Below, piece after piece: positions 2,422-31,064 of a stretch of 34,384 nucleotides of DNA (positions are counted from its first letter, which is position 1; every line of letters starts with the position of its first letter). Location: contig JAQAZV010000260.1 of assembly GCA_032127155.1 (NCBI GenBank), positions 1 through 34,384 on the forward strand. Direction: 5' to 3'. A model generated the notes under the pieces. That model was not told the DNA's origin. It ran no database searches and saw only the letters and a list, made by a program, of their open reading frames with translations. Made by a program: the position numbers and the translations under genes. Source of the DNA: Acidimicrobiia bacterium. GTDB taxonomy: Bacteria; Actinomycetota; Acidimicrobiia; Spongiisociales; UBA5794.

Positions 2422-3798
2422 CGGGTCCTGAAGCGACGAGATCGTCGTAGAGGTCAAGGTGGCGCTGAGCCGGGTTCGCCCATGACCAGTCTGCCTCCAT
2501 GCCCCTGCGCTGGATTGCGGTCCGCCGTCGTGGCTGTTTCCATCCCCGAACCGCCCTGTGGAGGGCATCAACGACACCTGCCGTATCCGTCGAATGCGCA
2601 GCGAAGCCCGTGCCAACCTTCGATTCGTCCGCGTCGCTCACCGTGTCGACGAGTCCGCCAACCCTGGTGACGATCGGGATCGTTCCGTACGCCATCGCCT
2701 GCATCTGGGCAAGGCCGCACGGTTCGAAACGAGATGGCATCAACAACAGGTCAGCCCCGGCAAAGAGCCTGTGTGCCAAACCTGCGTCGAAGCCGTCGCG
2801 GAACCACACGGCATTCGGATCCTCTGCGGACAGGTACGAGGCCCAGTCCGCCATCCACTTCTCACCGGATCCGAGAAGCGCAAGCCTGAAGGGCACGCCA
2901 TGGGCGAATCTGACCGACTCCAGAGCAAGGTCGATGCCCTTCTGATCCACGAGCCGAGTCACCATGGCCACGATCGGGGTCCGTTCATCGTTCCAGCCGA
3001 GTTCTCGAATGAGCGCAGATCGGCACACCGACTTGCCAGAGAGGTCGTCCGCCGAATAGGTCGCTGCTATGGCCGAATCGCTGACAGGGGTCCAGACAGC
3101 GTTGTCGATACCGTTTCTGATCCCTACGAGACGGTCCCCGAGCGCCTCGAGCTGTACGTGGAGACCAGCACCGCCTTCTGGCGTTCGAATCTCATCGCCG
3201 TAGTGCGGGCTGACGGCAATGACCCGGTCCGCAAGCTGGATGGCACCGGCGAGTGGGTTGGTCCCTCCGTATGCCTCGAACAGGTCCGGCCTTCTCGTGA
3301 GCCGATCGAGCCAACCACCTGAAGTCCACCCCTGATGGCCAAGGGTGTGGATTGTCAGGACCGTGGGAACCTCACGCCTGAGAAGACCGAGGACCGGGCT
3401 CGTGTGCCAGTCGTTGCAATGAACGATGTCCGGACGCTGTTTGTCCGCAATGGCTGCAACCGCAGCGGAGAAGGCGAAGAAGCGATCCGCGTTGTCAGGC
3501 CAACCCGCTCCGTTGGCATCGACGTAGGGATTGGACCTTCGTATCCCGGGAACGTCGACGAGGGTGACGGTTCCGACCCCCGGAACCGTGCCCGACCGCG
3601 CAAACGCAGGACCTCCCCATGCAGGCACATCCAACGCCTCGATCGTTTCGTCTCCGAGGCTCGTCGACGCGTAGTCAGGAAGGACGACGGTCACGTCCAC
3701 GCCGTCGGCTCGCAGGGCACGGACGAGCCCGGCACCTGCCTCACCGAGGCCGCCGACCGTCACCAACGGAGCCAGCTCCGACGCCGCAAACAGGACCC

Positions 3799-3802
<4 letters not shown>
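2408..3802 (-). CDS. glgA: Glycogen synthase (GT5, ADP-glucose type)
   Basis: RVLFAASE, DNADRF, HCNDWHT, TIHT, GIRNGID, TRLVDQKG, MPSRFEPCGLAQMQAMAYGT and VGGLVDTV. GTG 3802 overlaps the glgX stop (GTGA). Confidence 0.93.
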
Positions 3803-5909
<2,107 letters not shown>

Positions 5910-5913
<4 letters not shown>

Positions 5914-7883
5914 GAGTCCCGACCCGGCCGGTACAGCCGCTCGTCGTACTCCGCAACCATCCGGGTGGCCGTCACGAACGGACCGAGTGTCTTCCAATTG
6001 TGCCTGACCTTGTCGGCCCACGCCGCCGACGGGCTCACCTCGCCCTGATAGAACAGCGGGATGATCTCGTCACGGAGAACCCGGTGGAGCGTCGCGGCCT
6101 CGTCGAGGTCACGAGCGTCCCGGTCCAGGTCTTCGGACGATTCGATCGCCCAGCCGTTCTCACCATCGAAGCACTCTGCCCACCATCCATCGAGCACGGA
6201 GAAGTTCAGGCCACCGTTGAGTGCCGACTTCTCACCTGACGTTCCACACGCCTCGTTCGGTCGGACGGGGTTGTTCAGCCACACATCGCAACCTGCATAC
6301 ATCCTCCGCGCGACGGCCATCTGGTAGTCGGGTATGAACACGAATCGACCCTGTGAGGCATCCGAATTCGCGAAGGACACGACACGATGGAGCACTTCCT
6401 TGCCGGGATCATCTGCGGGGTGTGCTTTTCCTGCAAAGACGAACTGGATGGGCCGTTCGGTGTCGGCGAGGAGATCGGCAACCGCCTCGGCGTCGCGCAA
6501 CAGGAGGTCGGCACGCTTGTAGGTGGCGAACCTTCGGGCGAACCCGATCGTCAGGACATCGTCCCTGAGAGCGTGGCGTGGACCGAATCGTTGATTCACC
6601 ATATCGATGAGGCGTCGTCTCCCCATGGTTCTCAGTTCGCGGAGGTGGTCATTGTCGAGCTGGTCGACAGCATTCCACCTCTCCGCAGGAGCCAGATTCC
6701 AATCAGGTCCCATGACGCGCTCGAACTCGGCTTGCAGGCCATTGGCAACCCACGTCTTGGCGTGGACACCGTTCGTCACCGAGGTGATCTCGTCGCCGCC
6801 CGGAACATCGGCAAACATCTCCCTGCTCACTGCACCGTGGAGGGCGGAGACACCGTTCGCTCTGCTCGAGACGTTGAGGCAGAACGCCGCCATGTTGAAC
6901 ACATCGTCCTCACCCGGCATGTGGGCAAGATTGAGGAGTTCATCGATTGAGACCCCATATCGCTCGGACCAAACACCGAGATAACGCTCCATGAGGTCGT
7001 GTGCGAACCGGTCGATACCCGCTGGCACGGGTGTATGGGTGGTGAAGACGATTCTCGGGCGAACCGCATCGAGGGCCTCACCGAGCGAGAGACCGCGGTC
7101 GACCTCTTCCCCGATGAGCTCGAGCGCCAGAAACCCTGCATGGCCCTCGTTGAGGTGGAACACCTGGGGGTCGTATCCGAGTTGTCGAAGTGCACGAACG
7201 CCACCAACCCCCATCAGGAGTTCCTGACGGATCCGGTGCTCACGGTCGCCGCTGTAGAGCCGATCCGAGACCTTCTTGCCGCGCTCGTCATTCAGCTCGA
7301 GGTCGGTGTCCAACAGATAGAGCTTGGTCCGGCCGATGTCTGCTCTCCACACCCTGGCCTTGACGATGCGATCGTCCATGGTGATGTCGACGATCACCGG
7401 CATCTGTTCGAGCCCGAGCGAAATGGGATCGACACGTTCGTAGTGCTCACGTTGGCGCTCACCGCTGATGGACTGGTGGAAGAACCCGTCGCGATAGAAC
7501 AGACCGACGGCAACGAGCGGCAGGCCGAGGTCGCTTGCTGCTTTGAGGTGGTCGCCAGCGAGTACACCGAGCCCGCCCGAATATTGGGGGAGCTTCTCGG
7601 AAACGCCGAACTCAGGTGAGAAGTACGCAATCTCGGCAGTCGGAGATCGGTCAGGGTCCTGGACCCGTTCCGCCGCCGCCGCAGCTTCTGCGATGAATTC
7701 TCTGTCGGCGAGGTATCCGTCGTAATCAGCGTCCGTGAAGGCGAGGACCCGCTGCTTCGGGTGGAGTCCCGCCGTCGCCCTTGGGAATTTGGCGAAGAGA
7801 GCCTGGGTGTGGCGATCCCATGTCCACGAGTAATTACTGGCAGCCCGCAACAGGGCAGCCTCGAGTTCGGAGCGCGTCATCAT
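5910..7883 (-). CDS. glgP: Alpha-glucan (glycogen/maltodextrin) phosphorylase, GT35
   Basis: YFSPEFG, YSGGLGVLAGDHLK, HLNEGH, FTTHTPVPAG, GFARRFATYKRA, AGKAHPAD and the PLP-site EACGTSGEK. ATG 7883 chosen. Confidence 0.95.
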
Positions 7884-7964
7884 TCCGGTCACAGTGAAAG
7901 TCCTTGGGGAGCGAAAGCGGTTCAAGTGTATCGGGTGCAGCGGCGCTGCCCACGTCTTGACCCG

Positions 7965-9860
7965 TCACGGGCGCAACGAGGCAAACTCCGACAGGAGGGA
8001 AACGAAGGCCGCATCGGTGTCCAGCTGATCCACCTTTCGCTCGTGGCGCAGCCTCCAGTTCGGTCGTTCCCAGTCCGTCCCAGGGATGTTCTGCCGTCGC
8101 TCCTCCATGAGGAGGTCGTCGAGGTTGATGAGGGCGACCGCAGCGTCCGTGCCCGACATCCAGGCCATCAGCGCATCACGCGTCTCGACGGGACCGTCGG
8201 TTCCCATCGTGTCCCGCAGCTGATCGATCGTCTCGGCCCTGATGCGCCGCTCCGCGGCGGATCGCTCCTCATCAAAGACACCGAGGTCCTCGAGATCGTC
8301 GATGTCCAATCCCTTCCACCATGCGGCGAAAGCAGGAGTGTCGTGGCTCGAAAGGGCGACGAGGTCGGTGGAGGCTGGTTTGGAGACACCGTCCATCGCC
8401 ATCGCCATCCCGAGCAGCTTGTGCTCCTTCAGGCCCTGACGGATCTCCGGTGGGACGGTCCCAAGATTCTCGCCAACGACACCCGCGCGTGCACGGATGG
8501 ATTCGATGCAGATGATGGCGAACATCTCATCCGTCGGCTGCATCACGTAGGCGCCCTGTGTTGCGCCACGTCCATGAGGAACCCACCACGTCCGATGAAT
8601 ACCCATGACATGGTCGATGCGGAGGAGTCCCGCGATCGACAACTGCTTGCGGATCGCCTTCCGGAAGTTGGCATGGCCCTCGGCCCTGGATTGGCGCGGG
8701 ATGGACGCAGGGAGTCCCCAGTCCTGCCCTCCCACGAACAGCGTGTCAGGAGGAGCGCCAAGGGACGCAGGGGCAAAGAGGTCAGGGTTGTCCCAGATGT
8801 CGAAACCATCGGGGTGGCATCCGATCGGCAAATCGACATAGAGATACTGCCCGCGCTCGGCAAGATCGCGTGACAGTTCGCGTAGCTGCGAGTCCATCAC
8901 CCACTGCACGGTCTCGTGATAGGAGACACGATCCGGCGATGGCGTCACGTCTGACCCCCATGCACGCCAGTTCCGACCGTTGATGTCGGCCATCGCACGG
9001 AAGGCGGCGTAGCGTCGCATCTCCGGTTCTCGAGCGAGGTAGTCGTCAACACGGGCCCGGAGTGCCGGGGTGACGTCGACATGGGCGGCGTATCGGGCAA
9101 GCTCCGCGCGAATGGAGGCACCGGCGAGGTCGTAGTCGACCCAATCGGGGTCCGATGCGGCAGTCACCGGCGCGGATGTCCAACCGGGAAGCGCCTCCAG
9201 ATCAGCGAAGACCTCGTTCCACGCCCTCCGGGATGCCGGGGCGTACGGCGAGGGTTGGTCATCGAAGGCAGCGAGCAGCGGCAGTGTCCCAACGACGGAC
9301 ACGCCGGCATGATCGCACAGGTCGGCGAGGACACGCAGGTCCCTGACCGTACCGATGCCACCATCGGTTCCCGATGTCCTCAGCGAATATGTGGGGCTGA
9401 TGAGACCCAGCGCCCCGGTGGGCGTCGGGTGCGCTGCCGTCGGCGCCGAGAGAATGTGGGACCCGGTGCGGCCGCCGTCGACCTCGAGCCGGTGATAGCC
9501 GATGGGGAGTTCGCCTTCGATCCGTATCGTCCCGTGATCGACCCTCGTTGGAAGGACCGTGCCATCCTCGAGCACGATCACTGCTGACGAGCACCCACCG
9601 CGAACGGGGACATCAGCAAGATTGCCGTCCCAAGCGACGAGGACAGGTTCAATTGCCGGAGCATCGGCAACGGAATCGTCGATCGCCTCTTCGACTTCGA
9701 AGGGAGACGTCAGCGAGCGCCCCGTCAGGGCCTCGAGGACCGCACGCAGGTCGTCCTGGGAAACGACCTGCGGTTGATTCCATGCATCCACCCACGCCGG
9801 TGCGACTCCGGCAACAGCGGCCAGGCGTTCGAGAGGATCTGAAGATCGCGCGTCGCTCAC
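7965..9860 (-). CDS. malQ: 4-alpha-glucanotransferase (amylomaltase, GH77)
   Basis: SPYAPASR, YVDLPIG, GAPPD..GQDWGLP, LRIDHVMG, GENLG, SSHDT and QNIPGT..PNWR. Start uncertain (GTG 9860 vs 9929). Confidence 0.94.
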   Translation of the reverse strand: MSDARSSDPLERLAAVAGVAPAWVDAWNQPQVVSQDDLRAVLEALTGRSLTSPFEVEEAIDDSVADAPAIEPVLVAWDGNLADVPVRGGCSSAVIVLEDGTVLPTRVDHGTIRIEGELPIGYHRLEVDGGRTGSHILSAPTAAHPTPTGALGLISPTYSLRTSGTDGGIGTVRDLRVLADLCDHAGVSVVGTLPLLAAFDDQPSPYAPASRRAWNEVFADLEALPGWTSAPVTAASDPDWVDYDLAGASIRAELARYAAHVDVTPALRARVDDYLAREPEMRRYAAFRAMADINGRNWRAWGSDVTPSPDRVSYHETVQWVMDSQLRELSRDLAERGQYLYVDLPIGCHPDGFDIWDNPDLFAPASLGAPPDTLFVGGQDWGLPASIPRQSRAEGHANFRKAIRKQLSIAGLLRIDHVMGIHRTWWVPHGRGATQGAYVMQPTDEMFAIICIESIRARAGVVGENLGTVPPEIRQGLKEHKLLGMAMAMDGVSKPASTDLVALSSHDTPAFAAWWKGLDIDDLEDLGVFDEERSAAERRIRAETIDQLRDTMGTDGPVETRDALMAWMSGTDAAVALINLDDLLMEERRQNIPGTDWERPNWRLRHERKVDQLDTDAAFVSLLSEFASLRP

Positions 9861-9958
9861 GGAACCGCCACGATGCACACCGGTGTCGTCTGCTCGTCGA
9901 TGGGACCTGGGCGCGGACGGAACCGACACGCCCCGTCAGGAGTCGTCAATCGTCTGCC

Positions 9959-15824: not shown

Positions 15825-15917
15825 CTCCGGAACGATACGGAGCCATCGAAGGCCTCGTGACGCTCCTCATCCCGGGACTGCATCCGCGCCGTATGCTCGG
15901 TGTCGAACAGGAGATCG

Positions 15918-16535
15918 ATGGAAACCCTCCCCATGTTCCCGCTCGGATTGGTCGCTTTCCCCGGTAGCGTCATCCCGCTTCGCCTGTTCGAAGAGCGATA
16001 TCTCGCCTTGCATGACTCACTGCTCGAGGGGGACGGCGAGTTCGGCATCGTGCTCATCGAGCGTGGAATTGCTGAAGCAGGGGGCGGAGAGCACTTCTCC
16101 ACGGGTTCCGTTGTGAAGTTGGTGGGGTCGACCGACCTCGAGGACGGATCGGTGATGATCGTCACCGTCGGGACCGACCGCCTCAGGGTCGATCAGTGGC
16201 TCGAAGACGACCCGTACCCGCTCGCGATCGTGGAGAGGCTCCCCATGCCAGCGGCGGGAGGATCTGCCGATTCGCTGGTGGCAGAATGCATGGGACTCCT
16301 CACGACGCTGCTCGCCCATGCATCCGAGCTCGGTTCGGATGTCGGGCTGACCCTGCCCACCGTGTCGGATGACCTTGCAGTCGCGCTCTACGAACTCGCT
16401 CACATGGTTCCGATCCAGGAGCTCGATCAGCAGCGCATCCTCGAATCGGCCGATGTGGCTTCCGGCGCGGAGATCCTCAAGGAAGCAATGGAAGGCGCAA
16501 TAGCGGTGCTCGAGATGCAGCTCGGCGAGTCCTGA
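15918..16535 (+). CDS. Stand-alone Lon protease N-terminal (substrate-binding) domain protein
   Basis: LPMFPLG.VAFPG..IPLRLFEERY, FGIVLIERG.EAGGG, W.EDDPYP and DQQRILE. No AAA+ or protease domain. AGGAG RBS before ATG 15918. Confidence 0.9.
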   Translation: METLPMFPLGLVAFPGSVIPLRLFEERYLALHDSLLEGDGEFGIVLIERGIAEAGGGEHFSTGSVVKLVGSTDLEDGSVMIVTVGTDRLRVDQWLEDDPYPLAIVERLPMPAAGGSADSLVAECMGLLTTLLAHASELGSDVGLTLPTVSDDLAVALYELAHMVPIQELDQQRILESADVASGAEILKEAMEGAIAVLEMQLGES

Positions 16536-16616
16536 CGAATCGCAACTCCCGGTCGTCTGCCGTCTGACACGCGAGCCACCGCTAGCTTGGAGTCAATCCT
16601 CCGACATGAGAGTGCC

Positions 16617-18509
16617 ATGGCGACCACACCACGACCGTTCGATGACGCCTTGATCCAGTCCGTTCGCAAGCGCCTTGCCGCGAACCATCGCGTGCGTCGG
16701 ACCCTCCCCGCAGGGGGCAGGCTGAACATCGACCGACAGCTCCCGTTTCTCGTCGTTCATCGACCCCGCCGTGGCCAAACCGTCGACCTCACACGCTTCG
16801 TGCGTGGCGAGGCGTCGTACCTCGTGGCACCGCGAGGCACGACGCACCGTGCCCAGGTGTCCAGCCTCATCTCTGGCATCGCTGAAGACATGGTTGCGGT
16901 CTTCGGTGCCTTTGGCATCATCGAGCTTTGGGCAGAAGAGGGCGATCCCGCCGAGCAGTCGGACAATGGAGTCGACCAGCCCCGCTTCTCGATCGCTGTC
17001 GCCAAAGCCGACGCGGGCGCACCGGCCGTCCGCGCGCTCGAAGCAAATCTCAGGAACATCAGCATCCTCGGGAAGAAGGCGGAGGTCACATTCGATTTCG
17101 GTCGCACCGCGCCTCCGGGTCTCCGGCGTATCAACCCGAAGGTCGGCGCCACGGACTCGCCGATCCGGTGGCTCGGCGTCGGAATGCGGCCGATCCACGA
17201 GGACAGCGAGACGGGAACGGAGTATCCGGCGGTGGCGCGCAGCCTGCATCGACAACTCTCCCGTACGATGCAACGAACCGCCTTCGAGTTTGCACGAAGG
17301 CAGACAACCCAACGGCCCCGCCACTACCAGGCACTCGGCCGTCGGGCCTTCGTGAAGGCTGCGCGTACGGCGGACCACCAATTGTCCGACATCGCATCTT
17401 CGTTCGATCTTCTGCTCCTTGTCACCCCTGTGAACACGGAACAGGAGTACCGAAGGTTCACCAAGAACAAGGGCGGGCGAGCTCCTCGCTTCGAATATCG
17501 ACCCCTCGACGTCGACGCGACCATTCTGAAGCGGAGGCTGTACGCCACACCGGTTGAACGGGTGGAGGACCCAACACTCGAATCCCTCTTCAGGGAGAAA
17601 CAGCGTGAGCTGTCCCTGAAGCTCGACCTGCTCTCCGACCGCAACACACCGCGGTTCCTCCACTCCGGTATCGCCCTGTACGGCACGGTCGACCAGTCCA
17701 CGCTTACGAGCGCCACCGACCTCCTCGCCAAGCTCGGCCATGAGCGGGACACCCGGCCGAAGAAGCCGGTGCCCGCCCAGGAGGTGGCGCGACGGGCGGA
17801 AGCGGAACTCGAGCACTACCGGGCGATGATGCCCGAAATGAAGGCCACGGTCACGGTGCGGGACGATTTGACGTCACTCATGGTGAGCGATGGCCACGTC
17901 CTCGTCGGCGCCTCGGTGCGGGTTCCGTCCGACCGCGTGAATGCCCTCATCCAACACGAGGTGGGGACGCACGTGGTGACCTTCTGGAATGGTTCGGTGC
18001 AGCCCCTTCGGCTGCTATCGACCGGCCTCGCCGGTCATGACGAGCTCCAGGAGGGATTCGCGGTGCTCGCCGAGCATCTGGTTGGTGGCCTCACGCCTGG
18101 GCGACTTCGGACCCTTGCGGGAAGGGTGATCGCCGCGGAGTCGATCATCGACGGCGCGGAGTTCATGGATACCTACCGGGTTCTCAAGGAAGACAACCAC
18201 TTCCTCCCGAGAACAGCGTTCCAGATCACAACTCGCGTCCATCGCGGTGGGGGCCTCGTCAAGGATGCGGTCTACTTGCGGGGTCTGAAGAAGGTGGTCG
18301 ACTACCTCGCAGACGGCGGTCGGCTCGACACGCTCCTCGTCGGCAAGATCTCGGTGGAACATACCGCCGTCATAGAGGAGCTCCAGCGAAGGGGCCTCCT
18401 CAAGCCGCCGCCGCTGCGCCCTGCCTATCTCGACGACCCGGACACGTTCTATCGCCTCGAGGACCTCAGGCGCTCCCCGGACCTCCTCGGCCTCGCCGAG
18501 CACGTGTGA
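16617..18509 (+). CDS. QEGLA-motif zinc metallopeptidase (DUF1704 / MATCAP-like), long form with extra N-terminal domain
   Basis: HEVGTH (HExxxH) at about 17955-17972, LQEGFA at about 18045-18062, RVHRGGG, KDAVYLRG and LLVGKI. Confidence 0.88.
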   Translation: MATTPRPFDDALIQSVRKRLAANHRVRRTLPAGGRLNIDRQLPFLVVHRPRRGQTVDLTRFVRGEASYLVAPRGTTHRAQVSSLISGIAEDMVAVFGAFGIIELWAEEGDPAEQSDNGVDQPRFSIAVAKADAGAPAVRALEANLRNISILGKKAEVTFDFGRTAPPGLRRINPKVGATDSPIRWLGVGMRPIHEDSETGTEYPAVARSLHRQLSRTMQRTAFEFARRQTTQRPRHYQALGRRAFVKAARTADHQLSDIASSFDLLLLVTPVNTEQEYRRFTKNKGGRAPRFEYRPLDVDATILKRRLYATPVERVEDPTLESLFREKQRELSLKLDLLSDRNTPRFLHSGIALYGTVDQSTLTSATDLLAKLGHERDTRPKKPVPAQEVARRAEAELEHYRAMMPEMKATVTVRDDLTSLMVSDGHVLVGASVRVPSDRVNALIQHEVGTHVVTFWNGSVQPLRLLSTGLAGHDELQEGFAVLAEHLVGGLTPGRLRTLAGRVIAAESIIDGAEFMDTYRVLKEDNHFLPRTAFQITTRVHRGGGLVKDAVYLRGLKKVVDYLADGGRLDTLLVGKISVEHTAVIEELQRRGLLKPPPLRPAYLDDPDTFYRLEDLRRSPDLLGLAEHV

Positions 18510-19289
18510 TCACTGGTCGAGTTCAGCTCGTACGGCACCGAAGGCGACATGGAGCGCATCCCCGATACCGGCGATCATCGACTCGTAGGGCTCCCCTGTC
18601 CACTCATCCATGTAGATCTTCTTCATCTCGATCGCAAGGGCGCACCCACGACCCGCATATCGCTCGTTGATCCAGCGTGACATGAACCCACCCTTGAAAC
18701 GTACGTTCTCGCGCACGTCGAGGTAACCCCCGTCGAAGGGATGCTCACGCATTCCCTCCGAGAATGCATCAACGACCGTACCCCACAGCGCTCGATCCAC
18801 CGTTCCCGTGCCAACATTGATCTCAGGATTCGCCTCGGGGTCATCGACGGGTGCGTCGGCTCCACGACGGCGGTGGTTGTAGCTATGAAGGTCGAAGACC
18901 ACGAACCGATCGTTCGCTGCGGCTGCCGCGTCACACATCACAGCGAGGTCGCGGTAGAACTCGTCGTAGACATCGAGGGATGCGGCGACCAGTTCTGCGC
19001 TCGGCGGGGACGTCCACAGGTCGAGACCCCACGCGTCGTCGGGCTTCTGATAGACGGAAATGTCCCTTGCACGGTTGAGGTCGACCTCGAACCGTGACCG
19101 ATCGACCACGATCGAAGCGTCACCGTTACCGACCCACCGGTCGGTGAACGGATCCTCTTCGCGGAGTCGCTCGTCGTCAGCGAGGGCCGTCAGCTCGGCC
19201 ACCTCGGGGCGGAGGCTGTGTCCTGCGTGGATCGCCGTTGCGATGATCGGCCCATCTCCTGTGACGATCTGCCATGCGGGTTCGGTCAT
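18510..19289 (-). CDS. N-formylglutamate amidohydrolase family protein (Zn exopeptidase fold)
   Basis: TAIHAGH, REEDPFTD, SRFEVDLNR, DLHSYN, ENVRFKGG and AIEMKK. Its start overlaps the ligase stop (ATGA). Confidence 0.9.
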   Translation of the reverse strand: MTEPAWQIVTGDGPIIATAIHAGHSLRPEVAELTALADDERLREEDPFTDRWVGNGDASIVVDRSRFEVDLNRARDISVYQKPDDAWGLDLWTSPPSAELVAASLDVYDEFYRDLAVMCDAAAAANDRFVVFDLHSYNHRRRGADAPVDDPEANPEINVGTGTVDRALWGTVVDAFSEGMREHPFDGGYLDVRENVRFKGGFMSRWINERYAGRGCALAIEMKKIYMDEWTGEPYESMIAGIGDALHVAFGAVRAELDQ

Positions 19290-20362
19290 AGGGTTGCCAT
19301 CTCCCGGTTGTCGAACTTTCGTTCGTAGTAGCCCATGTACTGCACCTTGCGCTCGAGGGAGTCCAGCACGGCCTCGTTGAAGTTCACACCCTCGAAGCGT
19401 TGGGCGGATCCGAGGCCGCCAGGGCTGAACACATTGATCTCCATCAGCTTGTTGCCGACGATGTCGAGGCCGACGAGGAACATGCCGTCCTGGACGAGCT
19501 TCGGCCGTACCATCTCGGCGAGCGCGAAGGCATCGTCGTCCAAGTCGGCCTTGGCAAGGCTCCCCCCTGCGTGGATGTTGGATCGCATGTCACCGCCACG
19601 TCGAATCCTTCGGAACGCGGCGTACCGTCCGCGATGGCGAAGAGGGAGCCCGTTCATGAGGAAGAGCCTCGTGTCGCCCTCCTCTGCCTTCTCGAGGTAC
19701 TCCTGGGCGATCACGTACCCGTCCCTCGTCACGGCATCGATGATCTGGTTGAGGTTTGCAACGTCGTCATTGCGGACCAGGAACACACCCTCGCCGCCCG
19801 ACCCCTGGAGTGGCTTGAGGACGCATTTCCCGCGATCCTTGACGAAGGACTTGATCTGGGCGCGATCCCTGGTGATGAGGGTGAGCGGGCGAACCTCCTC
19901 GGGGAAAGTCTGGAAATACATCTTGTTCTGTGCTTTGGCGAGCCCGTTCGGATCGTTCACAACGATCACGCCATTGCGCATCGCAACGCGTCCGAAGTCG
20001 ATGGCGGCCGACTTTGCCCAGTCGCGACGTCCCTTCTCCGTTGACGGGTCGTTCCTGAGCATCAGCACGTCGAGGTCATCGACCGTGATGCGTTCCGAGA
20101 TCGCCTTGGCGCCCTGGAGGTCTGCGAGGTAGGCCTTCCCCTCCTTGTACCGCGTCTTGGGAACCCGACGGGCGACGGCGCGAACACGCTCATCGGGGTC
20201 GTACTCGAGATTTCCGACGCTGATGACCCACGGTTCCCAACCGCGGTTCACCGCGGCCACGCCGAGGCGCGTGGTGGTATACCCAGCTTCCTCGGTTGAA
20301 ATGTCGTTGACGACGAAGGCAAGGCGCATCGGGTAGCGGCCCTTTCGGAGAGGGGTTTCCAC
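19286..20362 (-). CDS. Glutathione synthetase (GshB)-like ATP-grasp ligase, divergent subfamily
   Basis: LRNDP, VLKPLQGSGGEGVF, AQEYL, GDTR, RSNIHAGG and GLDIVGNKLMEINVFSP. Start is GTG 20362 (after TAGGCT) or ATG 20329. Confidence 0.88.
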   Translation of the reverse strand: METPLRKGRYPMRLAFVVNDISTEEAGYTTTRLGVAAVNRGWEPWVISVGNLEYDPDERVRAVARRVPKTRYKEGKAYLADLQGAKAISERITVDDLDVLMLRNDPSTEKGRRDWAKSAAIDFGRVAMRNGVIVVNDPNGLAKAQNKMYFQTFPEEVRPLTLITRDRAQIKSFVKDRGKCVLKPLQGSGGEGVFLVRNDDVANLNQIIDAVTRDGYVIAQEYLEKAEEGDTRLFLMNGLPLRHRGRYAAFRRIRRGGDMRSNIHAGGSLAKADLDDDAFALAEMVRPKLVQDGMFLVGLDIVGNKLMEINVFSPGGLGSAQRFEGVNFNEAVLDSLERKVQYMGYYERKFDNREMATL

Positions 20363-20441: not shown

Positions 20442-21653
20442 TCAGGCGAGATCCTGGATCAGGTCGACAACGCGGTCGACCTCGTCGATGGTGTTGTAGT
20501 GCACGAACCCGATCCGTACGAGGCCCTCTGGTCGGTTGAGCTTCCGCATCACCTCGTATGCGTAGTAGTCGCCCGACCATACGAAGCACCCCGCTTCACC
20601 AAGGATCGCCGCGACGTCACCGGGCGTACGGCCGTCGACATCGATGGCAAACGTCGGCGTCCGCCCGGTGGGCGTCGGTTGGCCGAAGAGGGTCACTCCC
20701 GGTGTTTCCGCGATGCGGGCGAGGAAGCGGTCGGAGAGCTGAGCCTCGTACTCGCGGATCGCACCGTATGCAGAGACGATGCGTTCACGTCGCGTAGCCC
20801 CCTTCCCGAGTGATGCGATGTAATCGACTGCGGCGGTCACGCCTGCCAACGACTCGAACGCCTGGGTTCCGGTCTCCCATCGATCGGGAGTGGTATCGGA
20901 GGCTGGCCGAAGCTTGTACGGCTGGAGGGAACCCAACAGGTCGTGTCTTCCGTAGAGACAGCCGGTGTGCGGACCGAACCACTTGTAGGCAGACGCTACG
21001 AGGAAGTCTGTTCCCGCTCGAACGACGTCCACGAGGCCGTGGGGCGTGAAATGAACGGCGTCCACATAGGTCAAGGCACCAGCAGCGTGTGAGATGTCGA
21101 CGATCTGGTCGATCGGAGTGATCGTTCCCACCGCATTGGATGCAAGTGTGCAGGCGACGAGGCGGGTGCGGGAATCCACGAGGGACTCGAGGGATTCAAC
21201 GTCCAGCCGACACCCCTCGCCAGGCTCGAAATCGACGAATCTGACCTCGGCGCCGCGATCTGCCGCCGCTTGCATCCATGGCGCGACGTTGGCGTCGTGA
21301 TCGAGGCGGGTGACGACGACGTTGTCCCCCGGTCCCCACGTCCGTGCAATGGCTCGGGAGACCGAGTAGGTGATCGAGGTCATGTTCTGACCGAATGCGA
21401 TCTCGCCAGGCGTGGCACCAAATAGATCGGCGACAGCCGATCTCGCCCCGTCGAGAACGGCATCGGTTTCGGCCGAAGATGCGAACGATCCGTGCAAATT
21501 GCTCCCCCCGCGCTCCATGAACCCTGTCATCGCTTCGATCACCGACGCGTGTGCCTGGGTTCCTCCTGGTCCGTCGAGGTAGGCCGCAGGCGAACTGCCA
21601 ACCGTGCGGGCAAGGGCGGGAAAGTTCGAACGGACGGCTGTGATATCGAGCAT
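20442..21653 (-). CDS. Cysteine desulfurase-like PLP enzyme (aminotransferase class V, VC1184-type)
   Basis: FPAL, YLDGPGGTQ, DHDANVAPW, ASNAVGT, VDAVH, SAYKWFGPH (PLP Lys), ETGT and VRIGFVHYNT. Confidence 0.9.
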   Translation of the reverse strand: MLDITAVRSNFPALARTVGSSPAAYLDGPGGTQAHASVIEAMTGFMERGGSNLHGSFASSAETDAVLDGARSAVADLFGATPGEIAFGQNMTSITYSVSRAIARTWGPGDNVVVTRLDHDANVAPWMQAAADRGAEVRFVDFEPGEGCRLDVESLESLVDSRTRLVACTLASNAVGTITPIDQIVDISHAAGALTYVDAVHFTPHGLVDVVRAGTDFLVASAYKWFGPHTGCLYGRHDLLGSLQPYKLRPASDTTPDRWETGTQAFESLAGVTAAVDYIASLGKGATRRERIVSAYGAIREYEAQLSDRFLARIAETPGVTLFGQPTPTGRTPTFAIDVDGRTPGDVAAILGEAGCFVWSGDYYAYEVMRKLNRPEGLVRIGFVHYNTIDEVDRVVDLIQDLA

Positions 21654-24109: not shown

Positions 24110-25204
24110 GTGATCCAACGATCCCTTCAATTCCTGATGGACGGCACCCTCGTTGACAGCGACGCGGCCGAAGGATCGTGGACGTGGTTCGACCTCGAGA
24201 TCGATGATCCCGGCGCGACGGAACTCTTCGACATCGCGACGAGGCTCGAGCTCGATCCCCTCGCCATCCGGGATGCCATCGAAGAATACGACTTGCCGAA
24301 AGTCGATGACTTCGGTCACAACCTTCTCGTGGTCCTCCACGGACTCCGGGAGGACGTTGTCGACACCTATGAGGTGGACTGCTTCCTGACTGCCGACAGC
24401 CTCGTCACCGTGCATGGGCCGGGTACCCCCGCCCTCGAGGCCCTCTGGAACCAGGCACACCAGAGCACCCAGCTGGCGAGCGGTGGGCCTGACCATCTCC
24501 TCGCACGACTCGCCGATGTGCTCACGAGGAGACTGCTCGCGGTCATGGACCTGTTCGACGATCGGGTCGACGACCTCATCGGAATGGCACTCGCTGCGGA
24601 CCCTCGCCTGCTGGAGGAACTCACTGCCATCAGGACGGACGTCTCAGCGATCCGTCGCGTGGTCCATCCACAACGAGAGACGCTCGATCTCCTTCGGCAG
24701 GACACGACGCCGCTCGTCTCGAGTTCCGCAAGGCGCAGGTTCTCCGATGTCTTCGACGTCGCGAACCGGGCCGTGCAGGGGCTCGACAATGCACGCGGGG
24801 TGCTCGCCGAGACGCTGGATGCCTATCGCGGCGCTGAGGCGCGACGCGCAACCGACGTGACGAAGGTCCTCACGATCTACGCTGCGATCATGCTGCCTCT
24901 CTCGCTGGTGACCGGATTCTTCGGAATGAACTTCTCCAACCTGCCAGGCATCTCCAGTGGATCAGGGTGGATACTTGTGACCGTCGCCATGATCATCATC
25001 GCAACGGTGTCGCTCGGAATCTTCATCTCGGCCGGATGGATCAAACGTCCGTCAGGACGTCAGGCGGGCAGGACGCTCGGTCTTGGCCTGATCGAGGCAG
25101 CACGGGCACCCGTCCATGTCGGCGGTGCTGTGTACGAGATCACCACCATGCCACTTCGCGGATCTGTGTCCCACGGGACCCGGACCGAGCGTCACCACGA
25201 CTGA
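24110..25204 (+). CDS. corA: CorA family Mg2+/Co2+ transporter
   Basis: WFDL, LDPLAIRD, PKVD, KVLTI..LPLSLVTGFFGMNF (GMN signature) and two C-terminal TM helices. Confidence 0.9.
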   Translation: MIQRSLQFLMDGTLVDSDAAEGSWTWFDLEIDDPGATELFDIATRLELDPLAIRDAIEEYDLPKVDDFGHNLLVVLHGLREDVVDTYEVDCFLTADSLVTVHGPGTPALEALWNQAHQSTQLASGGPDHLLARLADVLTRRLLAVMDLFDDRVDDLIGMALAADPRLLEELTAIRTDVSAIRRVVHPQRETLDLLRQDTTPLVSSSARRRFSDVFDVANRAVQGLDNARGVLAETLDAYRGAEARRATDVTKVLTIYAAIMLPLSLVTGFFGMNFSNLPGISSGSGWILVTVAMIIIATVSLGIFISAGWIKRPSGRQAGRTLGLGLIEAARAPVHVGGAVYEITTMPLRGSVSHGTRTERHHD

Positions 25205-25233
25205 CGACACCAACCACAGGAAGAGCACCAACC

Positions 25234-27738
25234 GTGTCCTCGAAATCTGCGAATACTGACTCGCTGCCAACAGAGGATGTCGCTCGACCGAGGCGGCCCA
25301 CTGGGGCAAACCTCGGAACCTTTGCCGGCGTGTTCACGCCTTCGATCCTCACGATCCTCGGGATCATCCTCTTCCTGAGGACGGGATACGTCGTCGGCAA
25401 CGCGGGCCTCGCAGGTGCCCTGGTCATCATTGCCATGGCCACGGCGGTGTCCGTCCTCACCAGCATCTCCCTCGCCGCGATCGCAACCAACATCGACGTG
25501 CGGGGCGGTGGCGACTATTACCTCATCTCGCGGACGCTCGGTCTCGAGTTCGGCGGTGCCATTGGCATCGTCCTGTTCCTCGCACAGTCGATCTCGATCG
25601 CGTTCTACGCCATCGGCTTCGGTGAGGCAACGACCACAATGCTCGTCCTCGATTTTCCCTATGCGACACAACTCATTGCCGCCGCGGCGATCCTCCTTCT
25701 GTTCGCCTTCGCCTGGGCAGGTGCAGATGTGGCTTCGAAACTCCAGTTCGTCATCATGGGCCTCCTCGTAGCCGCCCTGATCTCGTTCTACATCGGGGCG
25801 TTCGAATCCTTCAGCACGGCGACCCTCTCGGACTCGTGGGCTCCGGCGGCCGGTGCCATCGGCTTCTGGGCGGCGTTCGCCATCTTCTTCCCTGCGGTGA
25901 CGGGATTCACCCAAGGGGTCAGCATGTCCGGCGACCTGAAGGACCCAAGTCGGAGCCTCCCCATCGGAACCTTCACGGCTGTCGGTCTGTCGACGGTGGT
26001 CTACGTTTCCGTTGTCGTCCTGCTGGCTGCCGGGGTGCCGATCTCCATCCTCGTCAATGACGACGGGACCGCCATGCGGGATCTGGCCCTCATCGGAGTA
26101 CTCGTCGGCATCGGTGTCGTCGCTGCCACACTCTCGTCAGCGATGGCCTCCTTGCTCGGAGCGCCCCGCATCTTCCAGTCGATGGCGTCAGATCGGGTCT
26201 TCCCACTGATCAGTGGATTCGCCAAGGGTCACGGCCCGTCGAACAACCCGCGGAGGGCCGTCCTGCTCAGTTTTGGCATAGCCCTCCTGACGATCGGCCT
26301 CGGGAGCGTCAACGTCATCGCCCCGGTCGTGTCGATGTTCTTCCTCATCTCGTATGGACTCATCAACTACGCAACCTTCTACGAGGCTCGCGCCGGGAGC
26401 CCATCGTTCCGCCCGAGGTTCCGATTCTTCAGCAAGTGGGCAAGCCTCGCCGGGGCGCTGCTGTGTGGAGCCGCCATGCTCGCCATCAATCCCATCGCAG
26501 GTGCTGCCTCGATCGTGGTGCTCTTCCTCATCTACCAGTACCTCGGACGCCGCGACATACCCGAGCGGTGGGCCGATGCAGGGCATTCGCACCACTTTCG
26601 CAGGGCCATCGACAGCGTCAGGGCGCTCGACAAGGAAATCGAGCACGCCAGGAACTGGCGCCCCCAGATCCTGGTGTTTTCCGCAGATGCCGGCAGACGG
26701 GCAAGGCTGCTCACGTTTGCGAAGTGGATCGAGGGTCACAGCGGTTTCACGGCTGCCTTCCGGATCGTCGTCGGTGAGGGGATCCGGAAGCGGATCGAGA
26801 CGGACACGCAGGAAGCCGAACTCGTCGAGGAGATCCAGGAGCTCGGCCTTGACGTGAGCGGGAGGGCCGTGCTCGCCGCAGACGGTCTCGATGCGCTGCC
26901 CGTCATCGTTCAGTCGTTCGGGCTCGGCCGCATCAAGGCCAACCTCGTCCTGTTCGGTTGGCCGGAGTCACCGAGGCCGGAGCAACTCGCCTCCTACGTT
27001 GGCGCCGTCAGGAACGTGGCAAGGCTTGGTGTCAGTGTGATGAGCCTCTCGACCGACGAGCTTCGGTGGGGAAGGCTCAAGGCGATCCGTCCCGAGAGCC
27101 GAAGAATCGACGTGTGGTGGGAGGACGACGACTCGGGTCGCCTCACTCTCATGGCGGCGTACCTGTGCACGCGCCATGACCAGTGGAGGAAAGCCAGCAT
27201 CAGGTTGATCTCAGGACAGACCGAGGACGAGGACCGCGCACCTGCCCTGCGGTCCATGCTCGAGCAAGCACGCATCGATGCCGAGGTCGTGACCATCACG
27301 GATCCGACACGGGACGTCATCGTGAGCTCCTGCTCGGATGCTGCGCTTGTGCTGATCCCCATGCGCCTGCGTCAGGGCGAGATCAAGGATCCGATGGGTG
27401 GAGACATGGTCGAGCTCGCGTCCCGACTACCGATGACCGCGGCCCTGCACGCAGGCGCGCCGATCCTCCTCAACACCGACCCGGAGAGTGGCCTCGCCGA
27501 GCAGATCGCCGATGCGGAGGAAGCGTTGGACGAGGCGAGGGACCGCCTCAGGAAGCTCGAAAGAAGCGCTGACACTGCCCAGGCTGAGATCGACCGCCTG
27601 TCGCGCGAGGATGATCCCGAAGCCCTTGTCGTGGCCGAGGACCGTCACGCCGCGATCTTGCGTCGTGTGGTCTCCGCGAAGTTGAGGGTCGAGCGGGCGC
27701 AGGCCGAGATCGAGACCCTGCTGGGGCAACCCCGCTGA
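25234..27738 (+). CDS. SLC12-like cation-chloride cotransporter (APC superfamily) with cytoplasmic C-terminal domain
   Basis: LGTFAGVFTPSILTILGIILFLR, GGGDYYLISRTLGLEFGGAIG, FAIFFPAVTG, MSGDLKDP, APRIFQ, FFLISYG..N, FRPRF and NWRPQIL. Start approximate. Confidence 0.88.
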   Translation: MSSKSANTDSLPTEDVARPRRPTGANLGTFAGVFTPSILTILGIILFLRTGYVVGNAGLAGALVIIAMATAVSVLTSISLAAIATNIDVRGGGDYYLISRTLGLEFGGAIGIVLFLAQSISIAFYAIGFGEATTTMLVLDFPYATQLIAAAAILLLFAFAWAGADVASKLQFVIMGLLVAALISFYIGAFESFSTATLSDSWAPAAGAIGFWAAFAIFFPAVTGFTQGVSMSGDLKDPSRSLPIGTFTAVGLSTVVYVSVVVLLAAGVPISILVNDDGTAMRDLALIGVLVGIGVVAATLSSAMASLLGAPRIFQSMASDRVFPLISGFAKGHGPSNNPRRAVLLSFGIALLTIGLGSVNVIAPVVSMFFLISYGLINYATFYEARAGSPSFRPRFRFFSKWASLAGALLCGAAMLAINPIAGAASIVVLFLIYQYLGRRDIPERWADAGHSHHFRRAIDSVRALDKEIEHARNWRPQILVFSADAGRRARLLTFAKWIEGHSGFTAAFRIVVGEGIRKRIETDTQEAELVEEIQELGLDVSGRAVLAADGLDALPVIVQSFGLGRIKANLVLFGWPESPRPEQLASYVGAVRNVARLGVSVMSLSTDELRWGRLKAIRPESRRIDVWWEDDDSGRLTLMAAYLCTRHDQWRKASIRLISGQTEDEDRAPALRSMLEQARIDAEVVTITDPTRDVIVSSCSDAALVLIPMRLRQGEIKDPMGGDMVELASRLPMTAALHAGAPILLNTDPESGLAEQIADAEEALDEARDRLRKLERSADTAQAEIDRLSREDDPEALVVAEDRHAAILRRVVSAKLRVERAQAEIETLLGQPR

Positions 27739-29857: not shown

Positions 29858-29975
29858 TCCACTCGCTTGCACATCTGAACGATGTCGCACCGATCCCTCC
29901 AGGGGGCGTCGCGCGAACCAGCGTCGATCGTCCCACTCCACCTGGTGAGTCCGTGGGATGGGCATACTGCACGTC

Positions 29976-31064
29976 GTGCCTGCACACATCGACATCGTTG
30001 CGTACCGATCCGAGTGGCCCAACGAGTTCCGTGGCGTCGCTGCCGAGATCAGCAGCGTCCTTGGCGATCATGCGATCACGATCCACCATATCGGCTCCAC
30101 CAGTGTTCCCGGTCTCGCTGCCAAGGACATCATCGACGTCCAGGTATCCGTCCTTGATATCGACGACCCTCATCTGAGGCCGGGGCTCGAGGCCGCAGGG
30201 TTCGTGTGGCGAGGCGACATCACCAGAGATCACACGCCGCCCGGAACACTCCCACTGCCCGAGGACCTCGAGAAGCGGTATGCCCAGCGATTGGATTCGC
30301 CCAAGGTGAATTGCCATGTCCGCGTCCCCGGTCGCCCCAATCATCGGTACGCGCTGCTGTTTCGTGACTTCCTGAGGAGCAGTGAGGCTGCGGCCCAAGC
30401 GTATGCGGAGGTGAAACGCCAATTGGCCGGTCATTTCCCCAACGACGTTGATGCGTACTACGACGTCAAGGACCCGGTCATGGACATCATCTACGCCGCA
30501 GCGGAGGGATGGGCTGCAACGACCGAATGGACGGAACCTGCGATCCCGATCACGGCCAGTGATTGGACACTGAAGCACCGACGCGACAGGGATCTCTTCT
30601 TCGGGCACCACTTCGCCTCTCCGCTGCCCGCGGAGGCACGGCCAGGGTTCTCAGGGCTCCGCTATTTCGACATCGAGCCGGCGTGGCGATGCGAAGGCGA
30701 GTTCATACCGATTGCCGAGCGTCTGGTCGATGTGCCCTCGACCTCCGGGGTGGCGAGCCGTTACCGACATGTCGGCGATGCATCGGTCGCCATTCCAGGT
30801 CACCGATTGCGACTCATGGTCCTCGACGACGGCGATGGCGGACGATTCATCCCGTTCACGGACGAGACGGCAGGTGTCGAGACATATGGCGGGGCACGCT
30901 ATGTGGGCATCGAAGAACACGGGGATGGCATGCTGACCGTCGACTTCAACGAAGCCCACAACCCGTGGTGTGTATACGACGACGAGTTCGTGTGCCCACT
31001 GGCTCCACCGCAGAATGCAATCGCTCTTCGGGTGGTTGCAGGCGAACAGGACTACCGACCCTGA
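29976..31064 (+). CDS. Fusion of GrpB/UPF0157 nucleotidyltransferase-like domain and DUF1684 domain
   Basis: N half: Y..EWP..F, HHIGSTSVPGLAAKDIIDVQV, LLFRDFLR, AYAEVKRQLA. C half: FSGLRYF, PFTDETAGVETYGGARY, DFNEAHNPWCVY..CPLAPPQN..AGE. Confidence 0.88.
   Translation: MPAHIDIVAYRSEWPNEFRGVAAEISSVLGDHAITIHHIGSTSVPGLAAKDIIDVQVSVLDIDDPHLRPGLEAAGFVWRGDITRDHTPPGTLPLPEDLEKRYAQRLDSPKVNCHVRVPGRPNHRYALLFRDFLRSSEAAAQAYAEVKRQLAGHFPNDVDAYYDVKDPVMDIIYAAAEGWAATTEWTEPAIPITASDWTLKHRRDRDLFFGHHFASPLPAEARPGFSGLRYFDIEPAWRCEGEFIPIAERLVDVPSTSGVASRYRHVGDASVAIPGHRLRLMVLDDGDGGRFIPFTDETAGVETYGGARYVGIEEHGDGMLTVDFNEAHNPWCVYDDEFVCPLAPPQNAIALRVVAGEQDYRP

Follow-up and report, generated by a model that had tools for sequence, protein, structure and literature searches.

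Enzymes that add amino acids to the carboxyl end of a molecule and enzymes that trim them off again form known pairs (TTL/MATCAP, RimK/RimB, RloABC) and parts of small-peptide systems (those of N-acetylaspartylglutamate, NAAG, and N-acetylglutaminylglutamine amide, NAGGN). Here we describe a three-gene module from a 34,384-nucleotide stretch of DNA of an Acidimicrobiia bacterium (contig JAQAZV010000260.1, positions 1 to 34,384; hereafter, the window). The module encodes an ATP-grasp ligase resembling glutathione synthase (GshB), an amidohydrolase of the N-formylglutamate amidohydrolase (FGase) family and a two-domain metallopeptidase related to MATCAP, and is akin to all of these systems but a member of none. 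The trio recurs across bacteria as a conserved functional unit, and we tentatively propose that its enzymes work together in metabolism, attaching an amino acid to the carboxyl terminus of a small peptide that contains glutamate (acyl-Glu-X or a short oligo-glutamate) and taking it off again.

In the tubulin tyrosination cycle of eukaryotes, TTL adds a C-terminal amino acid, and MATCAP, recently identified as a tubulin detyrosinase, and TMCP cut after glutamate, MATCAP releasing the tyrosine of ...Glu-Glu-Tyr. As in the module, an ATP-grasp ligase is there opposed by a PF08014 peptidase with an HExxxH motif and a downstream glutamate, whereas the present locus has a GshB-type rather than a TTL-type ligase, no tubulin, and an FGase together with an apparently dead FGase domain, and its substrate may be small. 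In the mammalian metabolism of NAAG and beta-citrylglutamate, RIMKLA/B add glutamate to an N-acyl amino acid or citrate, GCPII/III remove it and aspartoacylase deacylates. The three-part logic of ATP-grasp ligase, metallocarboxypeptidase and carboxypeptidase-fold deacylase is shared, but the analogy is functional only, with an unrelated M28 peptidase, other organisms and no gene clustering. The RimK-RimB (rimABK) and RloABC systems of Pseudomonas also encode an ATP-grasp glutamate ligase with a peptidase that cleaves glutamate-rich tails (PMC12239564); their peptidases are retropepsins and their ligases RimK-type, whereas the ligase here, at 70.4 bits, does not reach the cut-off of 143.4 bits of the RimK family TIGR00768, and ribosomal protein S6 of the genome has no glutamate tail. 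The NAGGN operon (asnO-ngg-peptidase, PA3459-PA3461) resembles the proposed module in its N-acylated dipeptide, ATP-grasp-containing enzyme, operon peptidase and link to osmotic adaptation, and differs in being induced at high, not low, osmolarity and in using other enzyme families (PMC8070244).

A conserved three-gene unit

Three open reading frames (ORFs) fill positions 16587-20362 of the window, at 16587/16617..18509 (+), 18510..19289 (-) and 19286..20362 (-). The features we assign to them, with the evidence for each, are the following.

16617..18509, plus strand: two-domain MATCAP-like metallopeptidase, 630 amino acids, TIGR02421 'QEGLA motif protein' (PF08014, TIGR02421, homologue lengths)
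16617..17471, plus strand: putative N-terminal pseudo-amidohydrolase domain of FGase fold, conserved histidines lost (AlphaFold2 model, structural match, hhalign)
17454..18446, plus strand: MATCAP catalytic domain with HEVGTH and QEGFA (profile domain limits, motif positions)
18510..19289, minus strand: FGase-family amidohydrolase, 259 amino acids (PF05013, AlphaFold2 model, invariant residues)
19286..20329, minus strand: GshB-like ATP-grasp ligase, 347 amino acids, NF009110/PRK12458 subfamily (profile scores; alternative start GTG 20362)

The stop codons of the two convergent hydrolase genes abut: the TGA of the MATCAP gene has its last base at 18509, and 18510 is the first plus-strand base of the stop codon of the amidohydrolase gene (TCA on that strand). 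At 19286-19289 the sequence ATGA forms an overlap of the ligase stop with the amidohydrolase start, and by this 4-nucleotide overlap, a kind found also at L007 and L008 among the related loci described below, the two genes appear to be translationally coupled here. The MATCAP gene most likely starts at ATG 16617, because homologues are 630-633 amino acids long and cover 96-98% of the longer frame; for the ligase, ATG 20329 is more likely the start than GTG 20362, because the NF009110 profile begins there. A previous sequence-only reading of the window had described the three genes, the ATGA overlap, the abutting stops and the HExxxH and QEGFA motifs, all of which are present as it claimed; the homologue lengths uphold the start that it gave for the MATCAP gene, and its statement that the gene association recurs in other bacteria was borne out by the surveys below.

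We surveyed 151 genomes of Acidimicrobiia, scored 250 genomes of Gammaproteobacteria, and scanned one genome per species across phyla with a 13-row ligase alignment, a 40-ligase alignment being too diverse for a locus scan. Among the Acidimicrobiia, MATCAP-family genes occurred in 19 genomes, FGase genes in 11 and strong NF009110 matches (above 368 bits) in 7. Each of the seven ligase genes had both hydrolase genes next to it, in three differing gene orders, and an eighth genome (G106) contained a ligase fragment adjoining an FGase gene. The ligase was found in seven of the gammaproteobacterial genomes, with both hydrolases adjacent in every case. The cross-phylum scan yielded at least 557 confirmed ligase relatives; counts per 80 refer to the best 80 loci, which are those with the most similar ligases rather than a random sample, and in which presence of the three genes was assessed by tblastn. 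Of the 80, 70 had all three genes, most often arranged as FGase, MATCAP, ligase on a single strand. According to record titles, these loci span more than a dozen phylum-level groups, including Actinomycetota, Acidobacteriota, Planctomycetota, Bacteroidota, Ignavibacteria, Calditrichota, Chloroflexota, Myxococcota and other 'delta' groups, Poribacteria, Latescibacteria, Gemmatimonadota, Kiritimatiellae, Sumerlaeota, Dadabacteria and Gammaproteobacteria. The exceptions comprised four loci that end at contig ends (L033, L058, L043, L082), two with FGase and ligase genes and the MATCAP gene elsewhere in the genome (full-length in L086, just a partial fragment in L067), two with no FGase match (L090, L097), and two from Poribacteria (L077, L085) whose ligase stands by itself, in genomes that have no MATCAP gene.

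Fusions and duplications occur as well. One predicted protein (P0124, 624 amino acids) joins an FGase to a ligase whose sequence is 63% identical to that of the window, and in another (P0141) the C-terminal part of a ligase runs into the N-terminal part of an FGase. Both come from metagenomic gene calling and might contain read-through artefacts. A second ligase lies between the MATCAP gene and the ligase at five loci (L035, L042, L062, L071, L100), and the one that was scanned, from L035, is NF009110-type. RefSeq annotates the same trio on rhizobial megaplasmids, including pSymB of Sinorhizobium meliloti (L106; CP050512.1, 4258-8059). The pSymB trio lies directly upstream of a sugar ATP-binding cassette (ABC) transporter whose binding protein fits the description of SMb21587 in PMC10191376; on that match, the genes of strain 1021 would presumably be SMb21584-21586. 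A full-text literature search found no published study of the trio, and the S. meliloti locus tags were likewise without result. The association of the three genes is far beyond chance, and the trio is a real conserved functional unit.

The ligase, the amidohydrolase and the two-domain peptidase

The ligase matches Pfam family PF02955 (173.6 bits) and also PF02951, i.e., the GSH-S_N domain is retained. Among NCBIfam models it reaches 457.5 bits on NF009110 (PRK12458; curated cut-off 408) over profile positions 1-349 but stays under both GshB equivalog cut-offs (216 versus 272 bits on NF003573 and 196.9 versus 299.05 bits on TIGR01380), and it matches TIGR03103 weakly (E = 9e-4). Judged by these curated NCBI cut-offs, the ligase is not a glutathione synthase; RefSeq calls its homologues by that name. 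Its closest solved relative is Escherichia coli GshB (1gsa, E = 2.3e-35), which scores 125 bits compared with ~31 bits for RimK. The two share the fold and both domains, and the flexible-loop residues R225 and R233 of the E. coli enzyme are conserved, but R241 is replaced by serine, the ligase gene is linked to the two hydrolases, and no PF04262 gshA partner was found. The host genome (2.42 Mb in 323 contigs) is 92% complete and has no other PF02955 match. The genome search for gshA that the sequence-only reading had called for gave no PF04262 match, other types of gamma-glutamate-cysteine ligase not having been searched for, and a single YbdK-type carboxylate-amine ligase (NF010039, 491 bits) lies on a separate contig, C64. 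Four of five other trio genomes also lack a PF04262 match; the fifth, from a gammaproteobacterium of the Woeseiaceae, has its own gshA and a separate, better-scoring gshB besides the trio ligase. Among the ORFs scanned, the window has neither gshA nor hut genes, as that reading had stated. Its remark that most Actinobacteria use mycothiol did not fit as expected, as no MshC scored above cut-off in the genome (best match 296 versus 485 bits, probably CysS). Ligase identity across phyla is 66-83% among the best 80 loci. A complex prediction for the ligase with the amidohydrolase scored 0.02 against a mark of 0.32, a result that speaks neither for nor against binding.

The middle protein matches the FGase family PF05013 at 83.3 bits (cut-off 28.9), in agreement with the earlier assignment. 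An NCBIfam search with E up to 0.01 returned no family for it, HutG included, and a phmmer search against Protein Data Bank (PDB) sequences returned no match. Its AlphaFold2 model (predicted local distance difference test, pLDDT, 96.0) matches the structures 2q7s (Z 23.8, root-mean-square deviation, rmsd, 3.1, 241 residues aligned) and 2odf (Z 22.5). After these FGases, the nearest solved folds are the poly-gamma-glutamate hydrolases PghP and YndL (Z 12.2-12.3) and M14 carboxypeptidases, consistent with the carboxypeptidase-type fold named in the sequence-only reading. The FGase motifs HxGH, RxxxDxNR and DxHS and the glutamate are retained, H21, D133, H135 and E221 being invariant in 60 sequences, and the enzyme is probably active. 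The known reaction of the family splits formyl from glutamate, and known members act on small N-acyl amino acids (HutG). The protein shares the fold and motifs of HutG-type PF05013 enzymes, but it has no hut operon and no equivalog match, and a further copy, lacking the histidines, is joined to the MATCAP domain. It is the sole PF05013 match in the genome; a different FGase, in genome G055, reaches 154.6 bits on the same profile. The genome has a urocanase on contig C5, away from the trio contig; an arginase-type HutG was not found in it, and HutF had no match above cut-off.

The plus-strand protein matches PF08014 (MATCAP, formerly DUF1704) at 304.3 bits (cut-off 27), in keeping with the kinship previously suggested, and TIGR02421 (QEGLA) at 344.2 bits (cut-off 338.65). 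The zinc motif, HEVGTH, is encoded at 17955-17972 (residue 447), and QEGFA follows at 18048-18062 (residue 478). Among 73 relatives with near full-length matches, HE[VI]GTH is present in 69, HExxxH in 72 and QEG[LIV]A in 68. A phmmer search of the protein against PDB sequences, solved MATCAP chains included, gave no match. The MATCAP domain is preceded by 285 residues that are conserved at 72 of the 80 loci. An AlphaFold2 model of this N-terminal domain built from 69 sequences (pLDDT 89.6) has as its top structural match the N-formylglutamate amidohydrolase 2q7s (Z 14.0, rmsd 3.3, 183 residues aligned; Foldseek probability 1.00), followed by 2odf (Z 10.9) and then by M14 carboxypeptidases and poly-gamma-glutamate hydrolases. 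Alignment by hhalign with the operon's FGase family gave a probability of 92.5% (E = 5e-7, 177 columns). In this alignment R35..D39 of the domain corresponds to the FGase motif R66..D70 and the pair E103/W105, with W105 invariant, to D133/H135, whereas the FGase segment H21-x-G-H24 is without counterpart. Of the domain's columns with at least 90% conservation, none is a histidine; the domain keeps the R..D motif and one acidic residue but not the histidines. We read the N-terminal extension as a divergent, catalytically dead paralogue of the operon's own amidohydrolase, in which the histidines of the active FGase (H21 and H135 invariant, H24 nearly so) have been lost.

Other MATCAP arrangements were also seen. 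The Acidimicrobiia have a second, shorter MATCAP subtype (8 loci) without a conserved neighbour, and in one genome (G066) the long form stands on its own. In a gammaproteobacterial trio (G302:C1:93577-94579), the MATCAP match falls in two adjacent pieces, suggesting a frameshift or a split gene.

Gene neighbourhood and a possible response to salt

We grouped the ORFs from the 80 loci into clusters, named each cluster after the Pfam matches of a single representative and counted neighbours within 8 kb. No fourth gene was universal at these loci, and no candidate protein-substrate gene was conserved beside the trio. The neighbours of most interest for ion balance, together with ABC ATPases as a yardstick, were distributed as follows.

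MgtE: 11/80 loci
CorC/CNNM: 10/80 loci
CorA: 7/80 loci
Any magnesium transporter (MgtE, CorA or CorC/CNNM): 20/80 loci
MscS-type channels: 21/80 loci
Magnesium transporter or MscS: 28/80 loci
ABC ATPases (yardstick): 15/80 loci

ABC ATPases are a far more frequent gene class in genomes, yet only 15 of the loci have one nearby. A number of the magnesium and MscS genes adjoin the trio directly and run in its direction (e.g., at L039, L048, L068 and L072). The window itself contains a CorA gene (24110-25204, +) and an SLC12-type transporter gene 3.8-7.4 kb from the ligase. These lie in a plus-strand region at 24110-27738, in which CorA is followed by a 923-amino-acid frame with amino-acid-permease and SLC12 C-terminal domains, of the cation-chloride cotransporter type; the two frames overlap, so that the second probably starts later.

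A published RNA-seq comparison of Photobacterium damselae at 1% versus 3% NaCl (PMC10308900) lists a 'GshB' (A0J47_RS17020) as 38.4-fold up and the adjoining QEGLA protein (RS17025) as 27.5-fold up at the lower salinity, together with RS17005 (18.6-fold), RimK (52-fold) and MgtE (5.4-fold). We infer from the adjacency, the names and the seven-of-seven linkage in Gammaproteobacteria that RS17020 and RS17025 probably belong to this module. RloABC, another ATP-grasp/peptidase operon, is required for hypo-osmotic tolerance, and the authors raise glutamate-polyglutamate homeostasis (PMC12239564); a further study concerns how Mg2+ takes part in osmotic adaptation (PMC8844918).

The genes for a Lon N-terminal-domain protein, a cysteine-desulfurase-like protein, an arginine deiminase and a major facilitator superfamily (MFS) protein that flank the trio were considered as further parts and not counted as such, because they are syntenic only in the same-genus locus L006 and absent from the other loci. 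The first of these encodes a stand-alone Lon N-terminal (substrate-binding) domain of 211 amino acids (15900-16535, +), 81 nucleotides upstream of the MATCAP gene, and the second a VC1184-type protein (20442-21653, -; TIGR01976, 461.9 bits) on the ligase's strand, ~110 nucleotides upstream of it. At six loci (L051, L076, L078, L083, L084, L093) a GNAT acetyltransferase gene sits just upstream of the amidohydrolase gene, at four of them (L051, L076, L084, L093) following a PBP_like_2 (phosphate-binding-protein-like) ABC transporter; such an acetyltransferase may supply an N-acetyl amino acid. Elsewhere in the window, a glycogen/alpha-glucan cluster (2408-9929, -) encodes a GT5 starch-synthase-like protein, a CBM48/alpha-amylase protein (GlgX-like), a phosphorylase with DUF3417 and a GH77 4-alpha-glucanotransferase; a glgA gene also occurs near the trio on a Pararhizobium plasmid. 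A frame at 29958-31064 (+) combines a GrpB domain with a DUF1684 domain. An Rfam scan gave no match in the window and just one SRP RNA in 8 related loci, and so no riboswitch lead.

Possible reactions, alternatives and significance

The known chemistries of the GshB, MATCAP and FGase families converge on a molecule of the acyl-Glu type, and we therefore favour such a substrate, a reading that we hold at somewhat less than an even chance. In the first step of the proposed pathway, the GshB-type ligase would activate, at the expense of ATP, the free alpha-carboxylate of an N-acylated amino acid and couple an amino acid X to it, in parallel to the GshB reaction of gamma-Glu-Cys with glycine (net, acyl-Glu + X + ATP to acyl-Glu-X). 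The MATCAP-type zinc peptidase would then take off the C-terminal residue, returning acyl-Glu and X, with the N-terminal dead FGase domain holding the acyl-Glu head uncut. In a third step, the active FGase-type amidohydrolase would split acyl-Glu into the acyl group and glutamate. A variant is that an oligo-glutamate is built and trimmed from its C-terminus, and tandem ligases, where they occur, might add two different residues. We lean towards a small molecule because the ligase matches GshB (125 bits) far more closely than RimK (31 bits) and keeps GSH-S_N, because the amidohydrolase fold next resembles poly-gamma-glutamate hydrolases and M14 carboxypeptidases, because no protein-substrate gene is conserved beside the trio, and because the pseudo-FGase domain keeps the R..D motif and the acidic residue with the histidines lost. 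The cycle could be tied to ionic and osmotic balance, interconverting free glutamate or another amino acid and a less osmotically active, cation-binding form; we suggest this link because of the magnesium and MscS neighbours, the CorA and SLC12 genes of the window, the low-salt induction in P. damselae and the parallel with RloABC.

Several points weigh against this proposal. To our knowledge, those MATCAP-family enzymes that have been characterised all act on a protein, tubulin, and none on small peptides, and a ligase with 66-83% identity across phyla could equally have a conserved macromolecule as its partner. Three of the seven Acidimicrobiia trios (G028, G100, G024) have MATCAP proteins without the N-terminal domain, which for that reason is not essential. 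Magnesium or MscS genes are neighbours at just 28 of the 80 loci, related genomes are non-independent samples, and CorA was not found within the flank covered in a same-genus genome. The identification of the module in P. damselae stands on adjacency and names, and low-salt induction does not reveal a product. The sequences show the families, motifs, folds, conserved linkage, fusions and neighbourhood; the substrate and every reaction are inferred from analogy with characterised enzymes.

A bacterial counterpart of the tubulin tyrosination or glutamylation cycle, in which the ligase extends the acidic C-terminal tail of some widely conserved protein by one or more residues, the MATCAP-like enzyme removes these and the amidohydrolase and its dead copy handle or recognise the terminal glutamate, seems to us possible though doubtful. 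The MATCAP family membership, with intact HExxxH and QEG motifs and a protein as the sole known MATCAP substrate, points in this direction, as do the extension of protein tails by RimK, a relative of the ligase, and the very high ligase conservation. RimK and Rlo modules also place a ligase with a peptidase in one operon (PMC12239564; PMC11957791). Against a protein tail, the ligase is GshB-like rather than RimK- or TTL-like, those FGase enzymes whose function is known use small N-acyl amino acids, none of the 80 loci pointed to a conserved substrate gene, and the patchy distribution (7 of 151 genomes in the class) would be odd for a modifier of a universal protein. Ribosomal protein S6 of the genome ends in ...EPTNVSQ, which lacks a glutamate tail and rules it out as a RimK-style target. 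In the same genome (L102; G000:C53, ORF 913-1374, -), an SSB-like protein beside rpsF ends in ...DFGPDEAPF, an acidic tail with a terminal phenylalanine; this is the kind of C-terminus that a Tyr/Phe carboxypeptidase might trim. Of the sequence-only reading's ligase-and-eraser interpretation, the functional linkage of the genes and a ligase other than a housekeeping GshB have stood, and the logic of one writer plus two erasers seems reasonable; a protein C-terminus as the substrate fared less well, as no substrate gene accompanies the trio and the S6 tail is not acidic. We regard as unlikely a broader scheme, a tubulin-code-like cycle in many phyla in which ligase and MATCAP-like enzyme would write and erase residues on an acidic protein tail or a cation-binding glutamyl peptide, tuning magnesium and osmotic homeostasis, with the dead amidohydrolase as tail reader.

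Salvage or catabolism of an external glutamate-rich compound (poly-gamma-glutamate fragments, pteroyl- or other glutamyl conjugates, or N-acyl amino acids), which the hydrolases would degrade and from which the ligase would activate or re-use an intermediate, is improbable in our view. PghP and YndL are the nearest solved folds after the FGases, and transporters are frequent nearby (ABC systems at 15 of 80 loci, an MFS gene in the window), but no uptake system is conserved with the trio at the 80 loci, an ATP-consuming ligase would be unusual in a purely catabolic route, and no signal peptide or secretion context was noted, no formal test having been aimed at these. That the ligase is simply the organism's glutathione synthase, beside unrelated hydrolases, is very improbable: its RefSeq name, its standing as the only PF02955 protein of the genome and the YbdK-type ligase on C64 would agree with such a role, but it falls below both equivalog cut-offs, PF04262 is missing from this 92%-complete genome and from four of the five other trio genomes, the fifth has both its own gshA and a better gshB, and the linkage to the hydrolases is conserved across phyla and extends to fusions. 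It is scarcely credible that the amidohydrolase is the HutG of histidine catabolism, placed here incidentally. The urocanase on C5, the lack of any other PF05013 match and the failure to find an arginase-type HutG or an above-cut-off HutF in the genome would suit HutG; against it, the protein has no NCBIfam match, scores only 83 bits on PF05013 compared with 154.6 for the FGase of G055, is kept beside the ligase or MATCAP genes in 72 of the 80 loci, and has no hut genes around it among the window ORFs scanned.

Beyond what the sequence-only reading had offered, the analysis adds the putatively dead amidohydrolase domain, the magnesium and MscS neighbourhood and the published low-salt induction, as well as amidohydrolase-ligase fusion proteins and operons with tandem ligases. 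There are many bacterial relatives of MATCAP, for which NCBI has only a name taken from a side phenotype, 'flavohemoglobin expression-modulating'. The module gives these proteins a fixed enzymatic context, with a ligase of opposite chemistry and an amidohydrolase in what appear to be a live and a dead copy, and a physiological lead, salt and magnesium balance. The question of the substrate is directly testable, because the module occurs in tractable bacteria, on pSymB of S. meliloti and probably in Photobacterium (PMC10308900). Once identified, the product might prove to be an osmolyte or cation buffer not yet described, or point to a novel protein modification in bacteria, and its identity would correct the many database entries that label the ligase 'glutathione synthase'.

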